DNA from: a virus
Strand: one strand, 5' to 3'
Length of the DNA stretch: 5,621 nucleotides
Virus record (IMG/VR): IMGVR_UViG_3300045988_000419
Location: 1-5,621 of that record
Positions 1-5,621 of this stretch are shown here, in pieces (positions within the stretch are counted from its first letter, which is position 1; each line of letters starts with the position of its first letter). Under the pieces are notes generated by a model that saw only the letters and a list, made by a program, of their open reading frames with translations, was not told where the DNA came from and made no database searches. A program made the translations under genes and the position numbers.

Positions 1-141
1 GATGATAATGCGGCCTTCCTGTTTGCTCTCCGTACTCTCCTGCGCAGAAATAGCGTAAGCCCGGCTCTGAGGCCCTTCTAAGGCGTTTTATGAACTTCTG
101 CACATCCTCATACCATAGCGTTTGATTTGTCTTTAAATCGC
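1..141. repeat. Terminal redundancy copy 1 (identical to 5481-5621); marks circular genome closure
   Basis: Base-by-base reading shows gatgataatgcggccttcctg...ctttaaatcgc at both ends. Confidence 0.97.
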
Positions 142-490
142 CCTTTCTGCCGCTGTATACGCCACCTCTGAAAACTTCACCGGTTTCGTGGTTGATGCAT
201 GGCACATGAGTGTCATCATAAGTTAGCGTAAGAAAATATACACTATTTGGTATAGATGTTTTTGCTTCCATTTCAATTCTTGCCGCCCAGTCTTGCCGTT
301 TCCGGATTCTACATCCGATGCATTGCCCGCACGGTACTAGCATAACGTCTTTTCGATAGATAAGGTCTTCGTATGTCAAGTTCGGATTATGTGCTCTTTC
401 AAGCGCAAAGCGCCTGAGCGTGTATACATGCCCAGACGCTTCACGGTCTTCTGGCACATAAAACCGGATTAACGGTTTATAACATGCCAT
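1..490 (-). CDS. VP4: Replication initiation protein VP4 (HUH rolling-circle endonuclease), N-terminal part. The ORF runs off the window start and continues at 5480 because the genome is circular. The full gene is 490..1 joined to 5480..4954, 338 aa.
   Basis: Manual translation from ATG 490..488 gives MACYKPLIRFYVPEDREASGHVYTLRRFALERAHNPNLTYEDLIYRKDVMLVPCGQCIGCRIRKRQDWAARIEMEAKTSIPNSVYFLTLTYDDTHVPC... with no stop down to base 1. It is in frame with the 4954..5583 ORF (490-103=387, divisible by 3). It carries a CGQCIGC Cys cluster, RCR motif I FLTLTY (about 218-235) and an HYH motif at 2-10. An AGGAG SD lies at 503..499, 8 nt upstream of the ATG. Confidence 0.93.
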   Translation of the reverse strand, partial: MACYKPLIRFYVPEDREASGHVYTLRRFALERAHNPNLTYEDLIYRKDVMLVPCGQCIGCRIRKRQDWAARIEMEAKTSIPNSVYFLTLTYDDTHVPCINHETGEVFRGGVYSGRKGDLKTNQTLWYEDVQKFIKRLRRASEPGLRYFCAGEYGEQTGRPHYH

Positions 491-493
491 TGC

Positions 494-1351
494 TTATTCT
501 CCTGTATCTCCGTTCAGATCCTGTCGTCTTTTCGCCTTTTCCTGAAGAGTTTTGCTTACTTTGCCTGCGCTGGTTTTCGCCACATCGGTGACTTTGTCTT
601 CGATGTTTTTTTCGGCCTCTGCTTTCTGTTCCTGGTCTTCTTCGGTTTTGTTGATAATCGTTCCCACGTCTTTGGCCAGTTGCTGAAAGCTGTACCCGCT
701 GTTAAATCCTTGCTGGTAATAGTCACTGACTGCGCTTGCAATGTTGTGGCTCGCATTTGCGCTGAGCTGGAAATTGCTACTTAGTGCACTTCCTCCTAGT
801 GCGCTTGTGCTTCCCAGTCCCATACTTGCCGCTCCGATTGTGCCCGCACCGCCTCCCGGTGTGCTTGCGCCTCCGTTCATTGCCGCCAAGATTGGGTTGA
901 TTCCTGCGGCCCTCATGTCTTTCACGGCTCTTTGGTAGGCTGTACTGCTCATGTGCTCTTGCCAATCGCGGTTTGCTTGAGCTTCTGCGGAGTTGTAGGC
1001 CATTGCCTCCTGCATCATTTTGCGGTTAAATTTGCCTTGATAATTCATCATGTTTCGGTTTAGCATGTATTGCAGTCCGCTTGAACCCAAGTTTCCGAGT
1101 CTCTGTAAAACCATGCTTCCGAGGTTTACGACGTCGTTACTTCCTCCGATGCTTCCGCCGATTCCCCAGCCTTCGCTTCCGCTTTCGCTGTGCCCTCCGC
1201 CCTGCGTGTATCCATTGTTGCCGCTTGTCGTTAAGGTTGTGTTGCCGCTTGTGTCATAGTATAGCTGCTCGTTTTGTTTTCGGTTTTGCCAAGAGTTCCA
1301 CAGATTGACACCTGCGTTTATGAGGCTTGGCACTACGCTCCAAAAACCCAT
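494..1351 (-). CDS. VP2: Minor capsid / DNA pilot protein VP2 (285 aa)
   Basis: It sits directly downstream of VP1, the typical gokushovirus position. It has a Gly/Ser-rich low-complexity core, an N-terminus MGFWSVVPSLINAG, and a conserved-looking STAYQRAVKDMRAAGINPILA segment typical of gokushovirus VP2. Its TAA stop (494-496) is 3 nt before the VP4 ATG. Confidence 0.88.
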   Translation of the reverse strand: MGFWSVVPSLINAGVNLWNSWQNRKQNEQLYYDTSGNTTLTTSGNNGYTQGGGHSESGSEGWGIGGSIGGSNDVVNLGSMVLQRLGNLGSSGLQYMLNRNMMNYQGKFNRKMMQEAMAYNSAEAQANRDWQEHMSSTAYQRAVKDMRAAGINPILAAMNGGASTPGGGAGTIGAASMGLGSTSALGGSALSSNFQLSANASHNIASAVSDYYQQGFNSGYSFQQLAKDVGTIINKTEEDQEQKAEAEKNIEDKVTDVAKTSAGKVSKTLQEKAKRRQDLNGDTGE

Positions 1352-1359
1352 AATACAAT

Positions 1360-1382
1360 AGCCCGAGGTATTCCCCCGGGCT
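1360..1382 (-). promoter_or_regulatory. Intercistronic hairpin between VP1 and VP2 (candidate attenuator or split ribosome-binding site)
   Basis: The minus strand reads AGAAAGGGGGA-AGCCCGGGG-GAATA-CCUCGGGCU-AUUGUAUU-AUG. This is a 9-bp stem (one G-U) that sits between the only SD-like element (AAGGGGGA, 1390..1383) and the VP2 ATG (1351). It is followed by moderately U-rich sequence. Confidence 0.5.
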
Positions 1383-1393
1383 TCCCCCTTTCT

Positions 1394-3046
1394 TTAGTGA
1401 TGATCTACCAGACCCGGGACGCTATAGAGCGGCATCGGCCGGACAGTTGTGTTTTTCACGAGGATGTCCATGATGAACTGTGGTTCGTCCTGAATTGCGA
1501 GAGTACGTTGAATTTCAGCTTTGCCCTCTTTCATCCACTCCTGAGAGAGCACAGGCACTGAGCTGTATTCGTCGGCATAGTGCCAAGAGTCCAGTGTGCC
1601 GTTTGCGTTGCTTCTGAAGAGGCCACAGACGCGGTTCGGTTTCATCCTGTATTCGCTCCATGCTTCCTGATAGCCGAAGGCCTCTTCGTCGGATGCTTCC
1701 GCTGTTGCGTAAAGCTCCTTTTTCAGTACTGCCTGCTCGCCCAAGTTTGCGAATACCGGGAAGTAGAAATCCAGCTTGTTTTTCCGACTCCACATCCGCT
1801 CGATGCCCTGTTGATATGTGTGGTCGTGTCGCACGCAGCACACACCGATGACCCAGCCGTGTTCTTCGAAGGACTTCGTAAAAGAACTTTTGCCAAATCC
1901 GGTTACGGACACTGCCGCTACGTTGCCCTGCGGGCTTTCCGTGGTCGTGCCGCTCGTCTGCACAACTTGGTTAATGTTGATCATGACCCGGTCGCCGCCC
2001 AGATACTCCGGAATCTGTGCTGTTTTATCGCTGATGCGCGTCCGGAATAGACTGTAAATTTGCTCACGATACCGAGAGCCGCCCCGTGCCAGCTCTTCGA
2101 AGTACTTTTGCACCTGAAAAGCTTTTCTCAGTTCGTTGATGCTTGTTGCGTTGACTTTCGAAAGGTCCGCGCCTAGGTAGGCTTGTTTATCACCCGTGGC
2201 GAAGATCGCTCTATTGTCGGGCATGCCGAGTATGCCCGCTGTGCCGGTCCGTTCGATTGTTCCGTTGTATATTGCGTAAAGCGATGAGTCCCATTCGGTT
2301 TTTACGTTGGCGTTTTTGTAACCTTTAATGGGCGCGTTACCGCTCAATGGAATTCTAACCGGGTCTCCCGCTCTCTGAGGCGAAGGGAGACTGCTGGAGA
2401 AGTAGTCGTGAAAGCGGTTGACAGGAAGAGGACGACCGCCCGTATATGCTTGCTGGAGAATCTTTTCGATGTTGTCCCCTGCGTCGTCCTTGTAGTCCAC
2501 AGTTGCGTCTGTCACACTGTTGATTGCCGGATTGTCCACGTTCTGGTCTCTGAACCACTCATTCCAGATTTTCACATACGCACGAATTGGCAGTGCGTTG
2601 ATTTCTGTTTTCTTCCCTGCGCCGACAAATTTGGTCGGAATGCCCATATAGTCGAGGATGCTGGCTTCTTTCGGCAGTTTGTCGGTGTCGCTTGTACCCG
2701 TGATTTTGATAGTCGGAACAGTGTACTCGACTGCCTGCACCCACGGCTCATCGGTGACTTCGCCCATGAATTCCTTCCAATGCTCCCACAGAATACGGTT
2801 CGGAACAAAGAAATAATAGTAATCCAAGTATGCGTTGTCCATTACCGGAAAAATCGGTGTGGTCATACGAATAATTGCACTCTGGTCTACAGAGAAGGTA
2901 TCGCCGGGCAAGACTTCATCCACATAAAAAGGAATGAGCTTGCCAGCGTCGAATGTTAACTTAATATCTTGGTCGCGCTTGAAACGGCTTCGCGTGATTT
3001 CCAGTGCTGGCACTTGGTTAAAGTGCGCCTCATTGTTGCGTTTCAT
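1394..3046 (-). CDS. VP1: Major capsid protein VP1 (phiX174 F-like jelly-roll, 550 aa)
   Basis: It carries hallmark gokushovirus VP1 motifs: HFNQVPALEITRSRF, GKLIPFYVDEVLPGDTF, PVMDNAYLDYYYFFVPNRILWEHWKEFMGE, INELRKAFQVQKYFEELARGGSRY and IPEYLGG. A GGAGG SD lies 7 nt upstream of the ATG (3046..3044). Confidence 0.97.
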   Translation of the reverse strand: MKRNNEAHFNQVPALEITRSRFKRDQDIKLTFDAGKLIPFYVDEVLPGDTFSVDQSAIIRMTTPIFPVMDNAYLDYYYFFVPNRILWEHWKEFMGEVTDEPWVQAVEYTVPTIKITGTSDTDKLPKEASILDYMGIPTKFVGAGKKTEINALPIRAYVKIWNEWFRDQNVDNPAINSVTDATVDYKDDAGDNIEKILQQAYTGGRPLPVNRFHDYFSSSLPSPQRAGDPVRIPLSGNAPIKGYKNANVKTEWDSSLYAIYNGTIERTGTAGILGMPDNRAIFATGDKQAYLGADLSKVNATSINELRKAFQVQKYFEELARGGSRYREQIYSLFRTRISDKTAQIPEYLGGDRVMININQVVQTSGTTTESPQGNVAAVSVTGFGKSSFTKSFEEHGWVIGVCCVRHDHTYQQGIERMWSRKNKLDFYFPVFANLGEQAVLKKELYATAEASDEEAFGYQEAWSEYRMKPNRVCGLFRSNANGTLDSWHYADEYSSVPVLSQEWMKEGKAEIQRTLAIQDEPQFIMDILVKNTTVRPMPLYSVPGLVDHH

Positions 3047-3534
3047 TACTCACCCTCCTTTTTGGCGTTATTTTCAGGTGGCTTTTCAAGTGGATTTTCC
3101 TTTAAAATGTCCAATTTCTTGGCCCATTCCACTGTGCCGTAGTCGTGGATGAATTTATCCACGTCGTTGTCGAACTTCTGCTTGGTTTCGCTCGGGAGCT
3201 TATCCCAAGTTTGCTCGGCCTGGATCATGAGATTCTGAGCTTCTGCCAGCGTTGTTGGCATTTCCGTATAGTCTACCGGTTCGCCGTCTCCCAGACTTGC
3301 GCCCAGTTTCTGTGCCGCTTCCGGATCAAAAGTGGCTCTCCTGATGATGTTTTCGATTTTAGTCTCTTCAAGGAAACTTTGGATTTCTGCATCCCTGTCG
3401 ATTTCCTCATCGAGAGCCAGTTCCTTTTTGCCTTCGCTGTTGTACTTCCACCGAAAAGTGCGCCGGATTTTATCACCCGACGCACTTGCCTCTTTCGGCA
3501 CTGCACTTGCGGTCGTGAGTCCGAATATCTTCAT
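3046..3534 (-). CDS. VP3: Internal scaffolding protein VP3 (162 aa)
   Basis: It is acidic and helical, immediately upstream of VP1, with a VDYTEMPTTLAEAQNLMIQAEQTWDKLPSETKQKFDNDVDKFI block resembling the Chlamydia-phage-type scaffold family. A GGAG SD lies 7 nt upstream. Its stop overlaps the VP1 start (TAATG at 3048..3044). Confidence 0.87.
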   Translation of the reverse strand: MKIFGLTTASAVPKEASASGDKIRRTFRWKYNSEGKKELALDEEIDRDAEIQSFLEETKIENIIRRATFDPEAAQKLGASLGDGEPVDYTEMPTTLAEAQNLMIQAEQTWDKLPSETKQKFDNDVDKFIHDYGTVEWAKKLDILKENPLEKPPENNAKKEGE

Positions 3535-3782
3535 TACTTGTCTCCTTCGCTGGCGTTGTTCGGCTTACCGTTACAGACTTTCCTCTGGGTGTTGGTGAAA
3601 GTGCCCTTGTCTTCGTCGAACTGGCCGATCTTGTAAAGTGCATAGTCTTCCGGTTCCTGTGCCATCTGACCCGTTTTGCAGGCCGCACAGAACGCTCGCG
3701 TTGCCGTTCCGTCGTTGATCGATTCGAACATCCCCATGAATTTCTGTGCCACATAGTCATATACGCTGTACATGTTCATCAT
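3534..3782 (-). CDS. Small conserved gokushovirus non-structural protein (VP5-like, 82 aa); function uncertain
   Basis: The pattern MYSVYDYVAQKF..F.S.NDGTATRAF.....PEDYALYKIGQFDEDKGTF matches, from memory, a small protein family found just upstream of VP3 in many gokushoviruses. An AAAGGAGAA SD lies 7 nt upstream. Its stop overlaps the VP3 start (TAATG at 3536..3532). Confidence 0.8.
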   Translation of the reverse strand: MMNMYSVYDYVAQKFMGMFESINDGTATRAFCAACKTGQMAQEPEDYALYKIGQFDEDKGTFTNTQRKVCNGKPNNASEGDK

Positions 3783-3847
3783 TTCTTTTCTCCTTTCATG
3801 ATTGCGAAATAGGCCACTGCAGTGACGGCCCAGACGAGACTGATCAT
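3779..3847 (-). CDS. Hypothetical 22-aa hydrophobic mini-protein MISLVWAVTAVAYFAIMKGEKK (speculative)
   Basis: Hand-translated; it is below the ORF-track length cutoff. It nearly fills the only gap (3783-3855) between two genes. It has about 16 hydrophobic residues followed by a KGEKK tail. Its TGA stop overlaps the next ATG (ATGA at 3782..3779), and its ATG lies 8 nt after the upstream stop codon. It has no SD of its own. Confidence 0.3.
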   Translation of the reverse strand: MISLVWAVTAVAYFAIMKGEKK

Positions 3848-3855
3848 AAATTCAT

Positions 3856-4038
3856 TCAGAGTCTGATTCCTCCTCTCATAGGCTTTGCTGTGAGGTTGAT
3901 ACTCTTCGTTTGGTTGGCCGTCTTGTTGTAGATTTTGGCATCCTTACGACGGCGGACTTTGTTTCTCTTGCTCAACTTCTTCACACCTCCATTCTTCAGA
4001 TCCTCTTCCAATTTCTCTTCGGATTTGCTCCATTTCAA
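3856..4038 (-). CDS. Small highly basic DNA-binding/packaging protein (phiX174 J-like / gokushovirus ORF8-like). The coordinates give the maximal ORF, and the true start is probably internal.
   Basis: The C-terminal part, KKLSKRNKVRRRKDAKIYNKTANQTKSINLTAKPMRGGIRL, is very Lys/Arg-rich. From memory, the PMRGGIRL ending recurs in small basic microvirus proteins. The track start at 4038 is a TTG. Alternative starts are GTG 3984..3982 and TTG 3975..3973, both downstream of a GGAGG at 3990..3986. There is no in-frame ATG before the C-terminal Met. It overlaps the 88-aa ORF in another frame. Confidence 0.62.
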   Translation of the reverse strand: MKWSKSEEKLEEDLKNGGVKKLSKRNKVRRRKDAKIYNKTANQTKSINLTAKPMRGGIRL

Positions 4039-4210
4039 TACTATTCGCGAAAGCCTTCTTTTGAAATGCCATGTCGATGTAAAACTTTGCGTCTTCGATT
4101 GTGGCCGCTTGCTGGCTCAGTTTGTAGGCGTTTTTGATTTCCTTGTAAGTCCTTGCAAGTGTCGTCCTTAGAGTCTCGTCGGACTGGTCTTGTACGCTCC
4201 AGCATTTCAT
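3944..4210 (-). CDS. Hypothetical protein, 88 aa, predicted helical; no recognisable family
   Basis: It has an ATG start at 4210..4208, preceded by a strong GAGGAGG SD (4223..4217) with a 6-nt spacer. It is on the same strand and in operon context with the other genes, and its charged, helical composition is plausible for a real protein. Confidence 0.68.
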   Translation of the reverse strand: MKCWSVQDQSDETLRTTLARTYKEIKNAYKLSQQAATIEDAKFYIDMAFQKKAFANSIEMEQIRREIGRGSEEWRCEEVEQEKQSPPS

Positions 4211-4221
4211 GTGATGCCTCC

Positions 4222-4347
4222 TCAGCTCATGTTGTTGGCGTTCTCGTTCTTATCTTCCAGCATGTGATAAATTTTATCAAGGACTGCGAGGATTTCGCGC
4301 AGTTTGCTAAAGATAGCGTTGACTTCTTTAAAGGTCGTTGTTATCAT
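4222..4347 (-). CDS. Hypothetical 41-aa protein MITTTFKEVNAIFSKLREILAVLDKIYHMLEDKNENANNMS (speculative first cistron)
   Basis: Hand-translated. The ATG at 4347..4345 is preceded by GAGGGGG, and the predicted transcription start is only about 8 nt upstream. The TGA stop (4224..4222) overlaps the SD of the next gene. The sequence looks like an amphipathic helix. Confidence 0.38.
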   Translation of the reverse strand: MITTTFKEVNAIFSKLREILAVLDKIYHMLEDKNENANNMS

Positions 4348-4361
4348 CCCCCTCGTAACCC

Positions 4362-4390
4362 ATTATACTACTGCCGCCGTTTTTTTTCAA
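4362..4390 (-). promoter_or_regulatory. Sigma70/SigA-type promoter for the whole minus-strand operon
   Basis: The minus strand reads TTGAAA (4390..4385), then a 17-nt spacer AAAAACGGCGGCAGTAG, then TATAAT (4367..4362). This places the start about 7 nt downstream (near 4355), just ahead of the first SD and ATG. Confidence 0.6.
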
Positions 4391-4440
4391 CCGCGCAGAA
4401 TAGCCAAGGTTGCGCAAGCAATTTTGGGCGTTCTGCGCGG
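4391..4440. promoter_or_regulatory. 10-bp perfect inverted repeat abutting the -35 box (candidate operator or cruciform)
   Basis: ccgcgcagaa (4391-4400) and ttctgcgcgg (4431-4440) are exact reverse complements separated by 30 nt. The spacer contains the palindrome ttgcgcaa (4410-4417) and a ccaa/ttgg pairing. Confidence 0.7.
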
Positions 4441-4468
4441 TTTGCCCGCTGCAGGCGAAACTTTGAGT

Positions 4469-4495
4469 TTTCAACACTTTCAACACTTTCAACAG
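4469..4495. repeat. Tandem 9-bp iterons: TTTCAACAC, TTTCAACAC, TTTCAACAG
   Basis: Three head-to-tail units occupy 4469-4477, 4478-4486 and 4487-4495. Confidence 0.9.
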
Positions 4496-4510
4496 GTTTT
4501 CCACAAAATG

Positions 4511-4532
4511 TTGCACAAAGGATTTTGTGCAA
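4511..4532. other. 9-bp hairpin between the two iteron clusters
   Basis: ttgcacaaa (4511-4519) pairs with tttgtgcaa (4524-4532), with a 4-nt loop ggat. A mutually exclusive 8-bp pairing is possible between cacaaaat (4502-4509) and attttgtg (4522-4529). Confidence 0.75.
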
Positions 4533-4543
4533 ATTGCTATATT

Positions 4544-4581
4544 CTCAACAATTCAACAATCTTTCAACAAAGTTTTCAACC
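4544..4581. repeat. Second cluster of the same motif: CTCAACA, TTCAACA, TTCAACA, TTCAACC at 8-12 bp spacing
   Basis: Copies lie at 4544-4550, 4552-4558, 4563-4569 and 4575-4581, all in the same orientation as the 4469-4495 array. Further copies lie at 4629-4635 and at the -35 box (4386-4392). Confidence 0.85.
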
Positions 4582-4694
4582 TTCTTTTGTGCGCTTTTTT
4601 TACGATGATATGTAAGAAAATGGCACTATTCAACATTTCCACACTCTCTACTACTACGGCTACAACAAATAAAATATAATAATAACTGCGAATT

Positions 4695-4753
4695 CGTATA
4701 CGCACGCGCGTGCGCGCGCGCGTTTCGCGTGCGTGCATGTGTGTGTGTATGCG
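4695..4753. repeat. Two perfect 28-nt alternating pyrimidine-purine tracts (CG/CA/TG/TA dinucleotides) separated by TTT; Z-DNA-prone low complexity
   Basis: 4695-4722 is cgtatacgcacgcgcgtgcgcgcgcgcg and 4726-4753 is cgcgtgcgtgcatgtgtgtgtgtatgcg. Every position alternates Y-R. The region contains a 14-bp perfect palindrome, cgcacgcgcgtgcg (4701-4714), and a 9-bp stem between 4700-4708 and 4726-4734. Confidence 0.9.
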
Positions 4754-4783
4754 AATACCTATGTGTGAGCAAAGCGAACGCAC

Positions 4784-4802
4784 CAACGCCGTATAGGCGT
4801 TG
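4784..4802. other. Small 7-bp hairpin
   Basis: caacgcc (4784-4790) pairs with ggcgttg (4796-4802), with loop gtata. Confidence 0.6.
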
Positions 4803-4814
4803 TGGTATGGAGGT

Positions 4815-4847
4815 TCGGGGGGTAGCGGCAGAACGCTCACCCCCCGA
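4815..4847. other. GC-rich hairpin (G-run / C-run stem)
   Basis: tcggggggt (4815-4823) pairs with accccccga (4839-4847). After a 1-nt bulge (c4838), agcg (4824-4827) pairs with cgct (4834-4837). The loop is gcagaa. There is no flanking U-tract on either strand. Confidence 0.75.
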
Positions 4848-4865
4848 TAATATTCTTGGTAATAG

Positions 4866-4894
4866 AAAACCCCATGTTTCTAACATGGAGTTTT
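4866..4894 (-). terminator. Rho-independent (bidirectional-looking) terminator ending the operon
   Basis: The minus-strand RNA reads AAAACUCCAUGUU-AGA-AACAUGGGGUUUU followed by CUAUU. This gives a 13-bp stem (one G-U) with a 3-nt loop and a U-tract. It lies about 60 nt downstream of the VP4 stop. Confidence 0.6.
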
Positions 4895-4904
4895 GTTGTA
4901 AATC

Positions 4905-4952
4905 TGTCAACGGGCCAAGTTGCAGCCTTGTTAGTAACTTGGCCCGTTGACA
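4905..4952 (-). other. 17-bp perfect hairpin starting 2 nt after the VP4 stop (candidate terminator, origin or priming structure)
   Basis: 4905-4921 (tgtcaacgggccaagtt) is the exact reverse complement of 4936-4952, with a 14-nt loop gcagccttgttagt. The mRNA-sense strand carries CAACTTG (4922..4916) at the loop-stem junction. Confidence 0.7.
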
Positions 4953-4953
4953 C

Positions 4954-5621
4954 TTAAATTTTTCCGGATGCTTTCCGGTGCTTCTTGATTCGGTCTTCTT
5001 GTCCCTTTAGATACTCTTCAATACTAACGTTAGTACGTCCATATTTATCCTTACAGGCGTCTATTGCTTTAGCTTGTCGCGCCTCTTTTAAGGCCCAAAC
5101 TCTGCGTATGTCCTTTTCTTCCATCTGCTTTTCAAAATACCGTGGTATTTGTGCTCTCCGGCCCCCCGAGAGTTGCACATAGCCTTGCGTCCAGATTTCT
5201 TCTTCGTGTTCAAGATAGTATTGCTGACCTATACCCGGGTGTAAGCTCATCCTGCAAAATGGTGGTTGTAAGCCGTTGCGGATGTGAGCTTGTGTTTCCT
5301 CGTCCACCTTTTTTGTGACGTATCCTGCCACATAGCTGAAGGTTGTAAAGTCGTTTGTACAGGCTAAATTGTGTATCCCATATGTCCATAGTTTTGTGAT
5401 ACGCTCGTCTGTGTAGTATCCTTCTTTGCTGAGAAGTCGGTACGGCTTGAGTTTCTCCGGAAAATAGTTAAAAAGTATAAGATGATAATGCGGCCTTCCT
5501 GTTTGCTCTCCGTACTCTCCTGCGCAGAAATAGCGTAAGCCCGGCTCTGAGGCCCTTCTAAGGCGTTTTATGAACTTCTGCACATCCTCATACCATAGCG
5601 TTTGATTTGTCTTTAAATCGC
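4954..5621 (-). CDS. VP4: Replication initiation protein VP4, C-terminal part. The same gene as 1..490, and 5481-5621 duplicates 1-141.
   Basis: The ORF-track entry 4954..5583 begins at an internal GTG, which is an artefact of linearisation. It contains HUH motif II (RPHYHLILFN) and motif III YVAGYVTKK (5308-5334), with two Tyr spaced Y-x-x-x-Y as in the phiX174 gene A protein. The stop is TAA at 4954-4956. Confidence 0.93.
   Translation of the reverse strand, partial: DLKTNQTLWYEDVQKFIKRLRRASEPGLRYFCAGEYGEQTGRPHYHLILFNYFPEKLKPYRLLSKEGYYTDERITKLWTYGIHNLACTNDFTTFSYVAGYVTKKVDEETQAHIRNGLQPPFCRMSLHPGIGQQYYLEHEEEIWTQGYVQLSGGRRAQIPRYFEKQMEEKDIRRVWALKEARQAKAIDACKDKYGRTNVSIEEYLKGQEDRIKKHRKASGKI
5481..5621. 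repeat. Terminal redundancy copy 2 (identical to 1-141)
   Basis: Same as copy 1. The unit length is 5,480 nt. Confidence 0.97.

Follow-up and report, generated by a model that had tools for sequence, protein, structure and literature searches.

The stretch of viral DNA analysed here, 5,621 nucleotides (nt) long and taken from IMG/VR record IMGVR_UViG_3300045988_000419 (positions 1–5,621; hereafter the window), carries on its minus strand a very short open reading frame (mini-ORF; 3779–3847) of 22 codons plus TGA, MISLVWAVTAVAYFAIMKGEKK, which occupies the gap between the gene for a VP8-like protein and the VP5 gene of a gokushovirus. Its conservation in relatives, with substitutions strongly biased towards synonymous changes, makes it almost certain that the mini-ORF is a real gene. 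Its product is very probably a membrane peptide, and the gene appears, with good probability, to be accessory. As to its role, we tentatively propose an accessory membrane peptide that tunes the end of infection through lysis, its timing or the burst.

Position and hydrophobicity of the mini-ORF

The peptide consists of about 17 hydrophobic residues followed by a short cationic tail. As the first-pass annotation of the window had described, the frame is packed tightly against its neighbours. Its stop codon TGA (3781–3779) overlaps the VP5 start codon ATG (3782–3780), and its own ATG (3847–3845) lies 8 nt past the stop codon of the VP8-like gene (3858–3856). The tail of the mini-ORF doubles as the Shine-Dalgarno (SD) sequence of VP5: the element AAAGGAGAA (3796–3788, minus strand) encodes Lys-Gly-Glu of the peptide tail and contains the GGAG (3793–3790) that stands 7 nt before the VP5 ATG.

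With a criterion of a Kyte-Doolittle value of at least 1.6 in a 17-residue window on the coding strand, the earlier claim that this is the sole transmembrane-like ORF held within the coding regions but not throughout the genome, as one further match was found in an AT-rich non-coding origin block. Hydrophobic ORFs on the coding strand at 4553–4840 of the window and in two related genomes (L005, 642–725; L006, 5002–5085) lie inside the AT-rich non-coding block, which has DnaA-box-like motifs, and are best read as compositional artefacts kept through conservation of the DNA element only. The best 17-residue insertion energy of the mini-ORF peptide is about −0.4 to −1.4 kcal/mol, as against at least +5 for all other proteins of the genome (approximate figures); the form in the window has about −0.4 kcal/mol. 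Because the coding strand is poor in T (19%, versus 29% in the hydrophobic part of the mini-ORF), few hydrophobic frames occur on it; a count of similar small hydrophobic ORFs across 80 related genomes gave 16 on that strand and 362 on the other.

Conservation and selection in close relatives

No close relatives of the window VP5 were detected in IMG/VR. Thirteen VP5 homologues with 79–90% identity were identified among 5.8 billion protein clusters, and their contigs were then fetched; an additional member of the group (L167) was found later by a pattern scan of metagenomes and is therefore outside the substitution analyses. Two contigs from other samples (L082 and L083) are the same as the window across the compared stretch, from VP8 to the VP5 start. 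Besides the window, the open frame is kept in 12 further distinct sequences, which gives a family of 13 (family A). The peptide has 25–26 residues in the relatives, with the consensus (M/V)NEFMISLVWA[VI]T[AV][VI][AT][YC]F[AS][IM][MT][KR]G[EA]K(K), abbreviated as (M/V)NEFMISLVWAVT..YFAIMKGEKK. None of the other sense frames is open in more than 3 of 12 family-A sequences.

Substitutions were analysed in the window and eleven family-A sequences. In pairwise Nei-Gojobori (NG86) comparisons, the proportion of synonymous differences (pS) in the mini-ORF is 0.44, equal to that of VP5, and the proportion of non-synonymous differences (pN) is 0.07, so that pN/pS is 0.16. The corresponding ratios are 0.22 for VP5 and 0.15 for VP8, and 2.3 and 1.5 for the mini-ORF segment read in two other frames. 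Parsimony on a maximum-likelihood tree built from the flanking genes gave 42 synonymous and 22 non-synonymous changes in 20 codons, a count that leaves out the tail doubling as the VP5 SD; recombination may have inflated these numbers, which tells against the gene, although the synonymous to non-synonymous ratio is robust to recombination. The resulting ratio omega is ~0.14, versus ~0.18 for VP5 and above 1 for the other two sense frames, and changes at codon positions 1, 2 and 3 of the mini-ORF stand at 10:10:44 (binomial p = 8e-15, by parsimony on the same tree).

Eleven positions are invariant in family A (M5, I6, S7, L8, V9, W10, A11, T13, F18, G23 and K25). The seven-residue run MISLVWA is constant while its codons vary freely, and alanine-11 is written with all four of its codons across the family. 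The candidate membrane peptide gene of the first-pass annotation is thus strongly supported: the frame is preserved in 12 further distinct sequences, the substitutions in it are biased towards synonymous ones with omega of ~0.14–0.16, much as in VP5 and VP8, and the alternative frames fail. Coding on the opposite strand was also considered and was rejected: although 11 of 12 sequences keep the codon-aligned antisense frame open, they vary at its first codon position.

Translation start and coupling

Family A employs ATG in three sequences, GTG in nine and CTG in one, the window. In 12 of the 13, the first codon overlaps the VP8 stop codon, as ATGA or GTGA or, in L094, as TAAATG. In the window and its matching contigs L082 and L083 this canonical start has been lost, and the in-frame codons upstream of the mini-ORF are CTG AAT GAA TTT (3848–3859, minus strand), where relatives have (ATG/GTG) AAY GAR TTY, encoding (M/V)NEF. 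Codons 2–4 differ across the family synonymously or conservatively (N/S, E/D). The ATG at codon 5, which gives the 22-residue form, is invariant. With regard to a dual-start motif that gives two products, as in holins, in-frame starts are present at codon 1 in 12 of 13 sequences and at codon 5 in all 13, and the extension contributes an acidic, not a basic, residue. Since the variation at codons 2–4 is that of a coding sequence, the usual product is probably the long form, of which the window would encode a shortened, possibly weakly expressed variant.

A GGAGG within Arg-Gly-Gly codons of the VP8-like gene (3869–3873, minus strand; read from the sequence) lies 9 nt upstream of the ancestral start codon and is likely to be the ribosome-binding site of the mini-ORF. 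The earlier statement that the mini-ORF has no SD of its own accordingly applies to the ATG of the window but not to the relatives, in which the ATG or GTG start is placed 9 nt past GGAGG. In genomes without the mini-ORF, the same GGAGG and overlapping GTG serve VP5. The window also has a three-codon frame, ATG AAT TTA TGA (3844–3855, minus strand), which starts directly after the VP8 stop and whose own stop overlaps the mini-ORF ATG (ATGA); it is possible that this frame relays terminating ribosomes by termination-reinitiation.

At the other end, 9 of the 13 family-A genes finish, in phase, with A_AAA_AAG or A_AAA_AAA, a −1 slippery heptamer of the dnaX type, and the −1 frame enters VP5. It was found in L084 (about 890–907), L088–L090, L094, L095, L097, L098 and L167, and is missing in the window (3779–3796), L085, L091 and L092.

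Several of these features weigh against a translated, membrane-spanning product. The hydrophobic core, at only ~17 residues, is short for a membrane span. The last 4–5 codons are the VP5 ribosome-binding site, so that the cationic tail is not independent evidence for a peptide, and the conservation of AAAGGAGAA is not to be credited to the peptide alone because the stretch is retained in L096, a genome without the mini-ORF. The loss of the canonical start, together with an ATG that has no SD at a workable distance, means that output from the window itself may be low. The pattern of substitutions nevertheless leads us to regard the frame as translated and the peptide sequence itself as subject to purifying selection of the same strength as that acting on the neighbouring genes.

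Absence from relatives

The first-pass annotation had counted absence of the ORF from close relatives as an argument against its candidate lysis or membrane peptide. Such an absence exists in L096, whose VP5 is 81% identical to that of the window and in which the VP8 stop is followed by a 12-nt spacer, GGAGATAACAGC, and the VP5 ATG, with the mini-ORF cleanly missing; the 12 further distinct sequences retain the frame. L096 is nested in the clade, between L091/L092 and the rest (bootstrap support 69%), and its position makes loss likelier than a late gain.

The wider set consisted of 80 IMG/VR relatives found through VP1 (38–72% identity). The great majority of these have the VP5 start joined directly to the VP8 stop (gap of −1 or −4 nt) or placed after an 11–18 nt SD spacer. 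Seven complete genomes with an empty slot (L005 and L006, which belong to the sister clade described below, and five other gokushoviruses) were scanned for a replacement membrane ORF and none was found. The sole match was MLNTMNSYPWNDIFWLILMLILLWITC, which L005 and L006 have in their AT-rich, origin-like non-coding block; it was taken as compositional and rejected as a compensating ORF.

Other mini-ORFs in the VP8–VP5 slot

A 38-codon hydrophobic ORF was identified in the identical slot of PV067914. Among 63 IMG/VR genomes of its sister clade, found with the PV067914 VP5, 13 have this ORF (family B, 38 codons; VNIMIWVGVIASIIAMCSASFALIAMGIDIIKNWRKxK), 23 have a 32-codon ORF (family C; VSAVFASMTMAFLAAGFYLVINAINIIKDWFK), one has a frameshifted copy and 26 have none. 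Families B and C have in common the invariant tail I-(D/N)-I-I-K-x-W, and their pN/pS values of 0.43 and 0.48 in frame, versus 0.8–1.8 out of frame, indicate purifying selection. A fourth family (D, 33 codons; MIEMASAITVICCGVAIIMMAVRMMMDKNKEDK) is present in MG945382, two relatives of which have none. GenBank records that contain slot mini-ORFs leave them unannotated.

All four families have the same build: a start overlapping the VP8 stop, 0–3 N-terminal residues, 17–25 hydrophobic residues and a short charged tail. The hydrophobic part is rich in Ala, Gly, Ser and Thr, and the tail enters the VP5 ribosome-binding site or start. No homology between family A and families B/C was detectable (hhalign probability 0.5%), and no slot family had a match in Pfam or PHROGs at relaxed thresholds, the 22- and 26-residue forms having been tried at E-values up to 10. 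A profile of families B and C run against 1.84 billion representative proteins found just five clusters, all of 32–38 residues.

Presence and absence are interleaved on the tree, and near-identical pairs such as L099/L105 and L143/L127 differ by precise excision. The trees rest on about 0.8–1.1 kb with evident recombination, VP5 types differing between clades far more than VP8 and VP1 do, so the counts of gains and losses are qualitative. A short direct repeat, (G/A)TGA plus 2–6 nt, flanks the insert, and the mini-ORF opens with the codons that open VP5 in empty genomes, for example GTGAGCACC, with VP5 restarting at ATGAATACC. Repeat sites were located at 688–700 and 801–812 in L143 (compared with L127), at 191–196 and 294–299 in L163, and at 3854–3859 and 3774–3779 in the window. 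The direct repeat would permit precise excision and, with weak statistical support outside family B, hints at inserts that originated at the VP5 start or captured it. In a test of the first 20 nt for duplication, only two family-B members were significant (p ~0.003), and no member of A, C or D. Origin of the mini-ORFs as tandem duplicates of the VP5 5' region was rejected, since the local alignment of each with the first 130 nt of its VP5 is no better than that of shuffled sequences (p 0.19–0.97).

Some genomes have apparent decay intermediates. In L134 (718–804) ten codons are deleted in frame and a hydrophobic ORF of 28 residues remains; L111 (686–751) has a frameshift truncation; and in L002 (643–700; identical to L164), a relative of MG945382, an internal deletion has reduced the ORF to a non-hydrophobic remnant of 12 codons. 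In distant relatives the slot holds soluble ORFs of 60–66 codons (L061, 2072–2273; L062, 1002–1185; L063, 5717–5900), one of which has a weak ribbon-helix-helix hint (RHH_1, E = 0.04). The VP8–VP5 junction thus appears to be a hot spot at which accessory genes are gained and lost.

VP5 diverges most between the three sister clades: the best match of the window VP5 in the GenBank phage set has 46% amino-acid identity (regions compared: window, 3534–3782; L001, 1124–1366; L163, 294–554), and between sister clades VP8 has ~79% nucleotide identity and VP1 68–72% amino-acid identity. As each VP5 type comes with its own mini-ORF family, this divergence suggests that VP5 and the slot move as one recombination module. 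One genome whose slot is empty (L059) has at the start of the operon (1290–1457) a 55-codon ORF with a clear hydrophobic helix and the tail ...MVKDMKGESKKWKSNHM; it overlaps a doubtful 181-codon frame and may encode another membrane mini-protein at a different position.

Genome organization

Bases 1–141 of the window are repeated at 5481–5621, so the window represents a complete circular genome of 5,480 nt, which by its sequence is that of a gokushovirus. The closest GenBank relatives come from faeces of human, monkey and pig. The minus strand carries every recognisable gene: the replication initiator (4954–5619 joined to 2–490), the pilot protein VP2 (494–1351), the capsid protein VP1 (1394–3046; Phage_F, E = 6.5e-142), the scaffold protein VP3 (3046–3534; Chlamy_scaf), VP5 (3534–3782; Phage_ORF5, Pfam PF20577, E = 1.8e-19) and the VP8-like small basic DNA-binding protein (3856–3984; phrog_10695, E = 1.7e-10), with the C-terminus ...KDAKIYNKTANQTKSINLTAKPMRGGIRL (PMRGGIRL). 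The only start candidates of the VP8-like gene are GTG (42 amino acids) and TTG (39 amino acids). Two orphan ORFs of 88 and 41 codons are on the same strand. The 3' end of the longer one (3944–4210) is overlapped by the VP8-like gene in a different frame; this ORF (MKCW.VRDQ.D..., 73–88 codons) is present in every examined relative that has a slot mini-ORF. No peptidase or muramidase domain was detected among the ORFs of the window genome, all of which were assigned or scanned against Pfam and PHROGs. A host search for a VP1 relative in the form of a prophage copy found none in 185,579 species genomes.

A proposed membrane peptide at the end of infection

In the role proposed here, the 22-residue peptide (25–26 residues in relatives) would insert into the host cytoplasmic membrane as a single helix without a signal peptide. 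The very short N-terminus would face outward and the Lys-rich tail would remain in the cytoplasm, a topology predicted from an N-terminus that is short and acidic or neutral and a C-terminus rich in Lys. The peptide would be expressed alongside the late genes by translational coupling: ribosomes ending VP8 would start at the overlapping ATG or GTG, served by GGAGG, or in the window at the conserved internal ATG 12 nt further on, and ribosomes ending the peptide would pass to VP5. With nearly the whole peptide within the bilayer, specificity would have to come from helix-helix contacts. Because the seven invariant residues, which lie in the outer half of the helix, have freely varying codons, we infer that the peptide contacts a specific host or viral membrane protein inside the membrane and is not a generic hydrophobic plug.

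Gokushoviruses are reported to lack the phiX174-type inhibitor of cell-wall synthesis (PMC7062461), and phiX174 is the only microvirus with an understood lysis mechanism, gokushoviruses being without a phiX174-type lysis gene (PMC3394797). Some microviruses carry peptidases instead (PMC9239249); the window genome has none. A size and build like those of the lysis proteins of single-stranded RNA (ssRNA) phages, expression in the late operon and the recurrence of unrelated peptides in one slot would all fit a lysis or lysis-timing peptide. Absence of the mini-ORF from L096, and of any slot ORF from 26 of the 63 sister-clade genomes, with no replacement in the empty-slot genomes scanned, argues against an indispensable lysis gene and thus against the essential release mechanism of these phages. 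An involvement in lysis is further weakened by the frequency with which the gene is lost without a replacement membrane ORF, by the fact that most gokushoviruses have nothing similar, by a helix without proline, unlike that of phiX174 E, and by a genome without an endolysin partner. The peptide could still be an accessory lysis or lysis-timing factor.

A rather unlikely possibility is that families A–D supply the missing lysis effectors for a large group of gut gokushoviruses, as one-helix 'protein antibiotics' against a specific membrane step of cell-wall synthesis. At least two to four separate origins would then have occurred in one slot of 70–110 nt, each capturing the original start codon and ribosome-binding site of VP5, and genomes without a slot ORF would be low-lysis or carrier-state variants.

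Comparison with known small membrane proteins

The proposed role corresponds to those of the two small membrane proteins of phiX174, E in lysis and K in burst size. The closest positional analogue of the mini-ORF appears to be gene K of phiX174. K is a 56-residue, non-essential hydrophobic protein of the Bullavirinae that has been reported to raise burst size. Like the mini-ORF, K encodes a small hydrophobic microvirus protein, is expressed by coupling in a compact operon, and directly precedes the gene for the switch from replication to packaging (C in phiX174, VP5 here), whose start it overlaps. A non-essential nature like that of K is suggested for the slot ORF by its natural absence from L096 and 26 of the 63 sister-clade genomes. 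The mini-ORF peptide differs in being half the size and in having no Pfam or PHROG match, and its gene has its own non-overlapping slot, whereas K is overprinted on genes A and B.

The phiX174 lysis protein E is a 91-residue amurin that inhibits MraY together with host SlyD; it causes lysis, and its helix alone carries the activity. The mini-ORF product resembles E in its single N-terminal transmembrane helix (predicted here) and its place in the late operon of a microvirus, and its invariant helix stretch similarly suggests a specific membrane target. Whereas the helix of E contains an essential proline and its C-terminal domain is basic, the 13 family-A sequences have no proline and a tail of just KGEKK. 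E is embedded in another frame of the scaffold gene D, whereas the mini-ORF overlaps VP8 and VP5 only at stop and start codons, and it appears dispensable in close relatives. Neither the 22- nor the 26-residue form had homology to E (Pfam Microvir_lysis) in Pfam or PHROGs at E-values up to 10, and no slot peptide matched a holin family in either database.

The single-gene lysis (Sgl) proteins of ssRNA phages, 35–75 residues long with a single transmembrane helix, have arisen de novo repeatedly; they vary greatly, show no homology from one lineage to another and are routinely missed by gene callers. Sgl of phage M (37 residues) blocks MurJ, and the AP205 lysis protein has 35 residues. The slot peptides are similarly small, with one transmembrane helix predicted here from hydropathy and insertion energy, and the recurrence of non-homologous small membrane ORFs in one slot resembles the de novo origins of Sgl proteins. 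MurJ is mentioned as a lysis-protein target in PMC10707117. Release of ssRNA phages requires their Sgl proteins, whose lytic activity has been demonstrated; the slot mini-ORF, by contrast, has a putative activity and is often lost.

The size and build of the mini-ORF peptide, a short hydrophobic helix with a few charged residues, are also those of the type I toxins TisB, Fst, IbsC and ShoB (19–35 residues), and peptides this small can depolarise membranes. These toxins are products of chromosomal or plasmid genes under antisense RNA, an arrangement that has no counterpart in the mini-ORF, to which they show no homology.

Alternative explanations

A membrane peptide could instead serve as a superinfection-exclusion or host-interaction 'moron', blocking genome delivery by related phages, for example at the pilot-protein conduit, or countering a membrane-linked defence. 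Patchiness among nearly identical genomes, together with precise excision, is what accessory genes of conditional use typically show, and a slot that also accepts the unrelated soluble ORFs of L061–L063 resembles an accessory-gene insertion site. Gokushovirus carriage is known to confer superinfection immunity (PMC7062461). Nevertheless, we consider this explanation improbable: the gene is placed in the late structural operon and not in an early or constitutive position, no exclusion, defence or anti-defence family was matched in Pfam and PHROGs (PADLOC was not searched), and there is no lysogeny signal, with no prophage copies found in the species genomes searched.

We give still less credence to a membrane tether that acts with VP5 in replication or packaging, placing late DNA synthesis or assembly at the membrane, possibly as a peptide-VP5 fusion made by frameshifting. 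VP5 has been described as the protein that switches replication from double-stranded to single-stranded DNA (PMC7062461). Each mini-ORF family is paired with its own VP5 type (A, B/C and D), VP8 and VP1 being far more alike between clades, and the mini-ORF is translationally coupled to VP5. The slippery heptamer of 9 of the 13 family-A genes would lead into VP5, but four members (the window, L085, L091 and L092) are without it, two of them (L091 and L092) have a closed −1 frame, and an SD-to-ATG spacer would look like an A-run anyway. Most gokushovirus VP5 proteins, moreover, work without such a peptide.

It is highly improbable that the segment is a mere spacer, providing VP5 with a ribosome-binding site and with ribosomes from VP8, and that its ORF is incidental. 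The 3' end of the ORF is indeed the VP5 SD site, the segment appears dispensable, and its insertion turns the VP5 start from a GTG overlapping the VP8 stop into an ATG with a strong SD. A spacer, however, would not be expected to have changes distributed 10:10:44 over the codon positions, an omega of 0.14 or seven residues that stay invariant while third positions vary freely, and L014, L015, L020, L030, L058 and L096 reach an SD and ATG for VP5 through 11–18 nt with no ORF.

Implications for gokushoviruses

In the human and animal gut, gokushoviruses rank with the most abundant small DNA phages. Mini-genes of 22–38 codons fall at or below the length cut-offs of annotation, such as the minimum of 110 bp used in PMC7062461. 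Four concrete conserved peptide sequences (families A–D) are now available, and natural pairs of genomes with and without the gene, differing by precise excision, offer a nearly isogenic comparison. Binding of the peptides to specific membrane enzymes, if it occurs, could indicate new antibacterial targets in gut Firmicutes; if the peptides cause no lysis, they would still be the first class of membrane-protein genes in the gokushovirus gene set.

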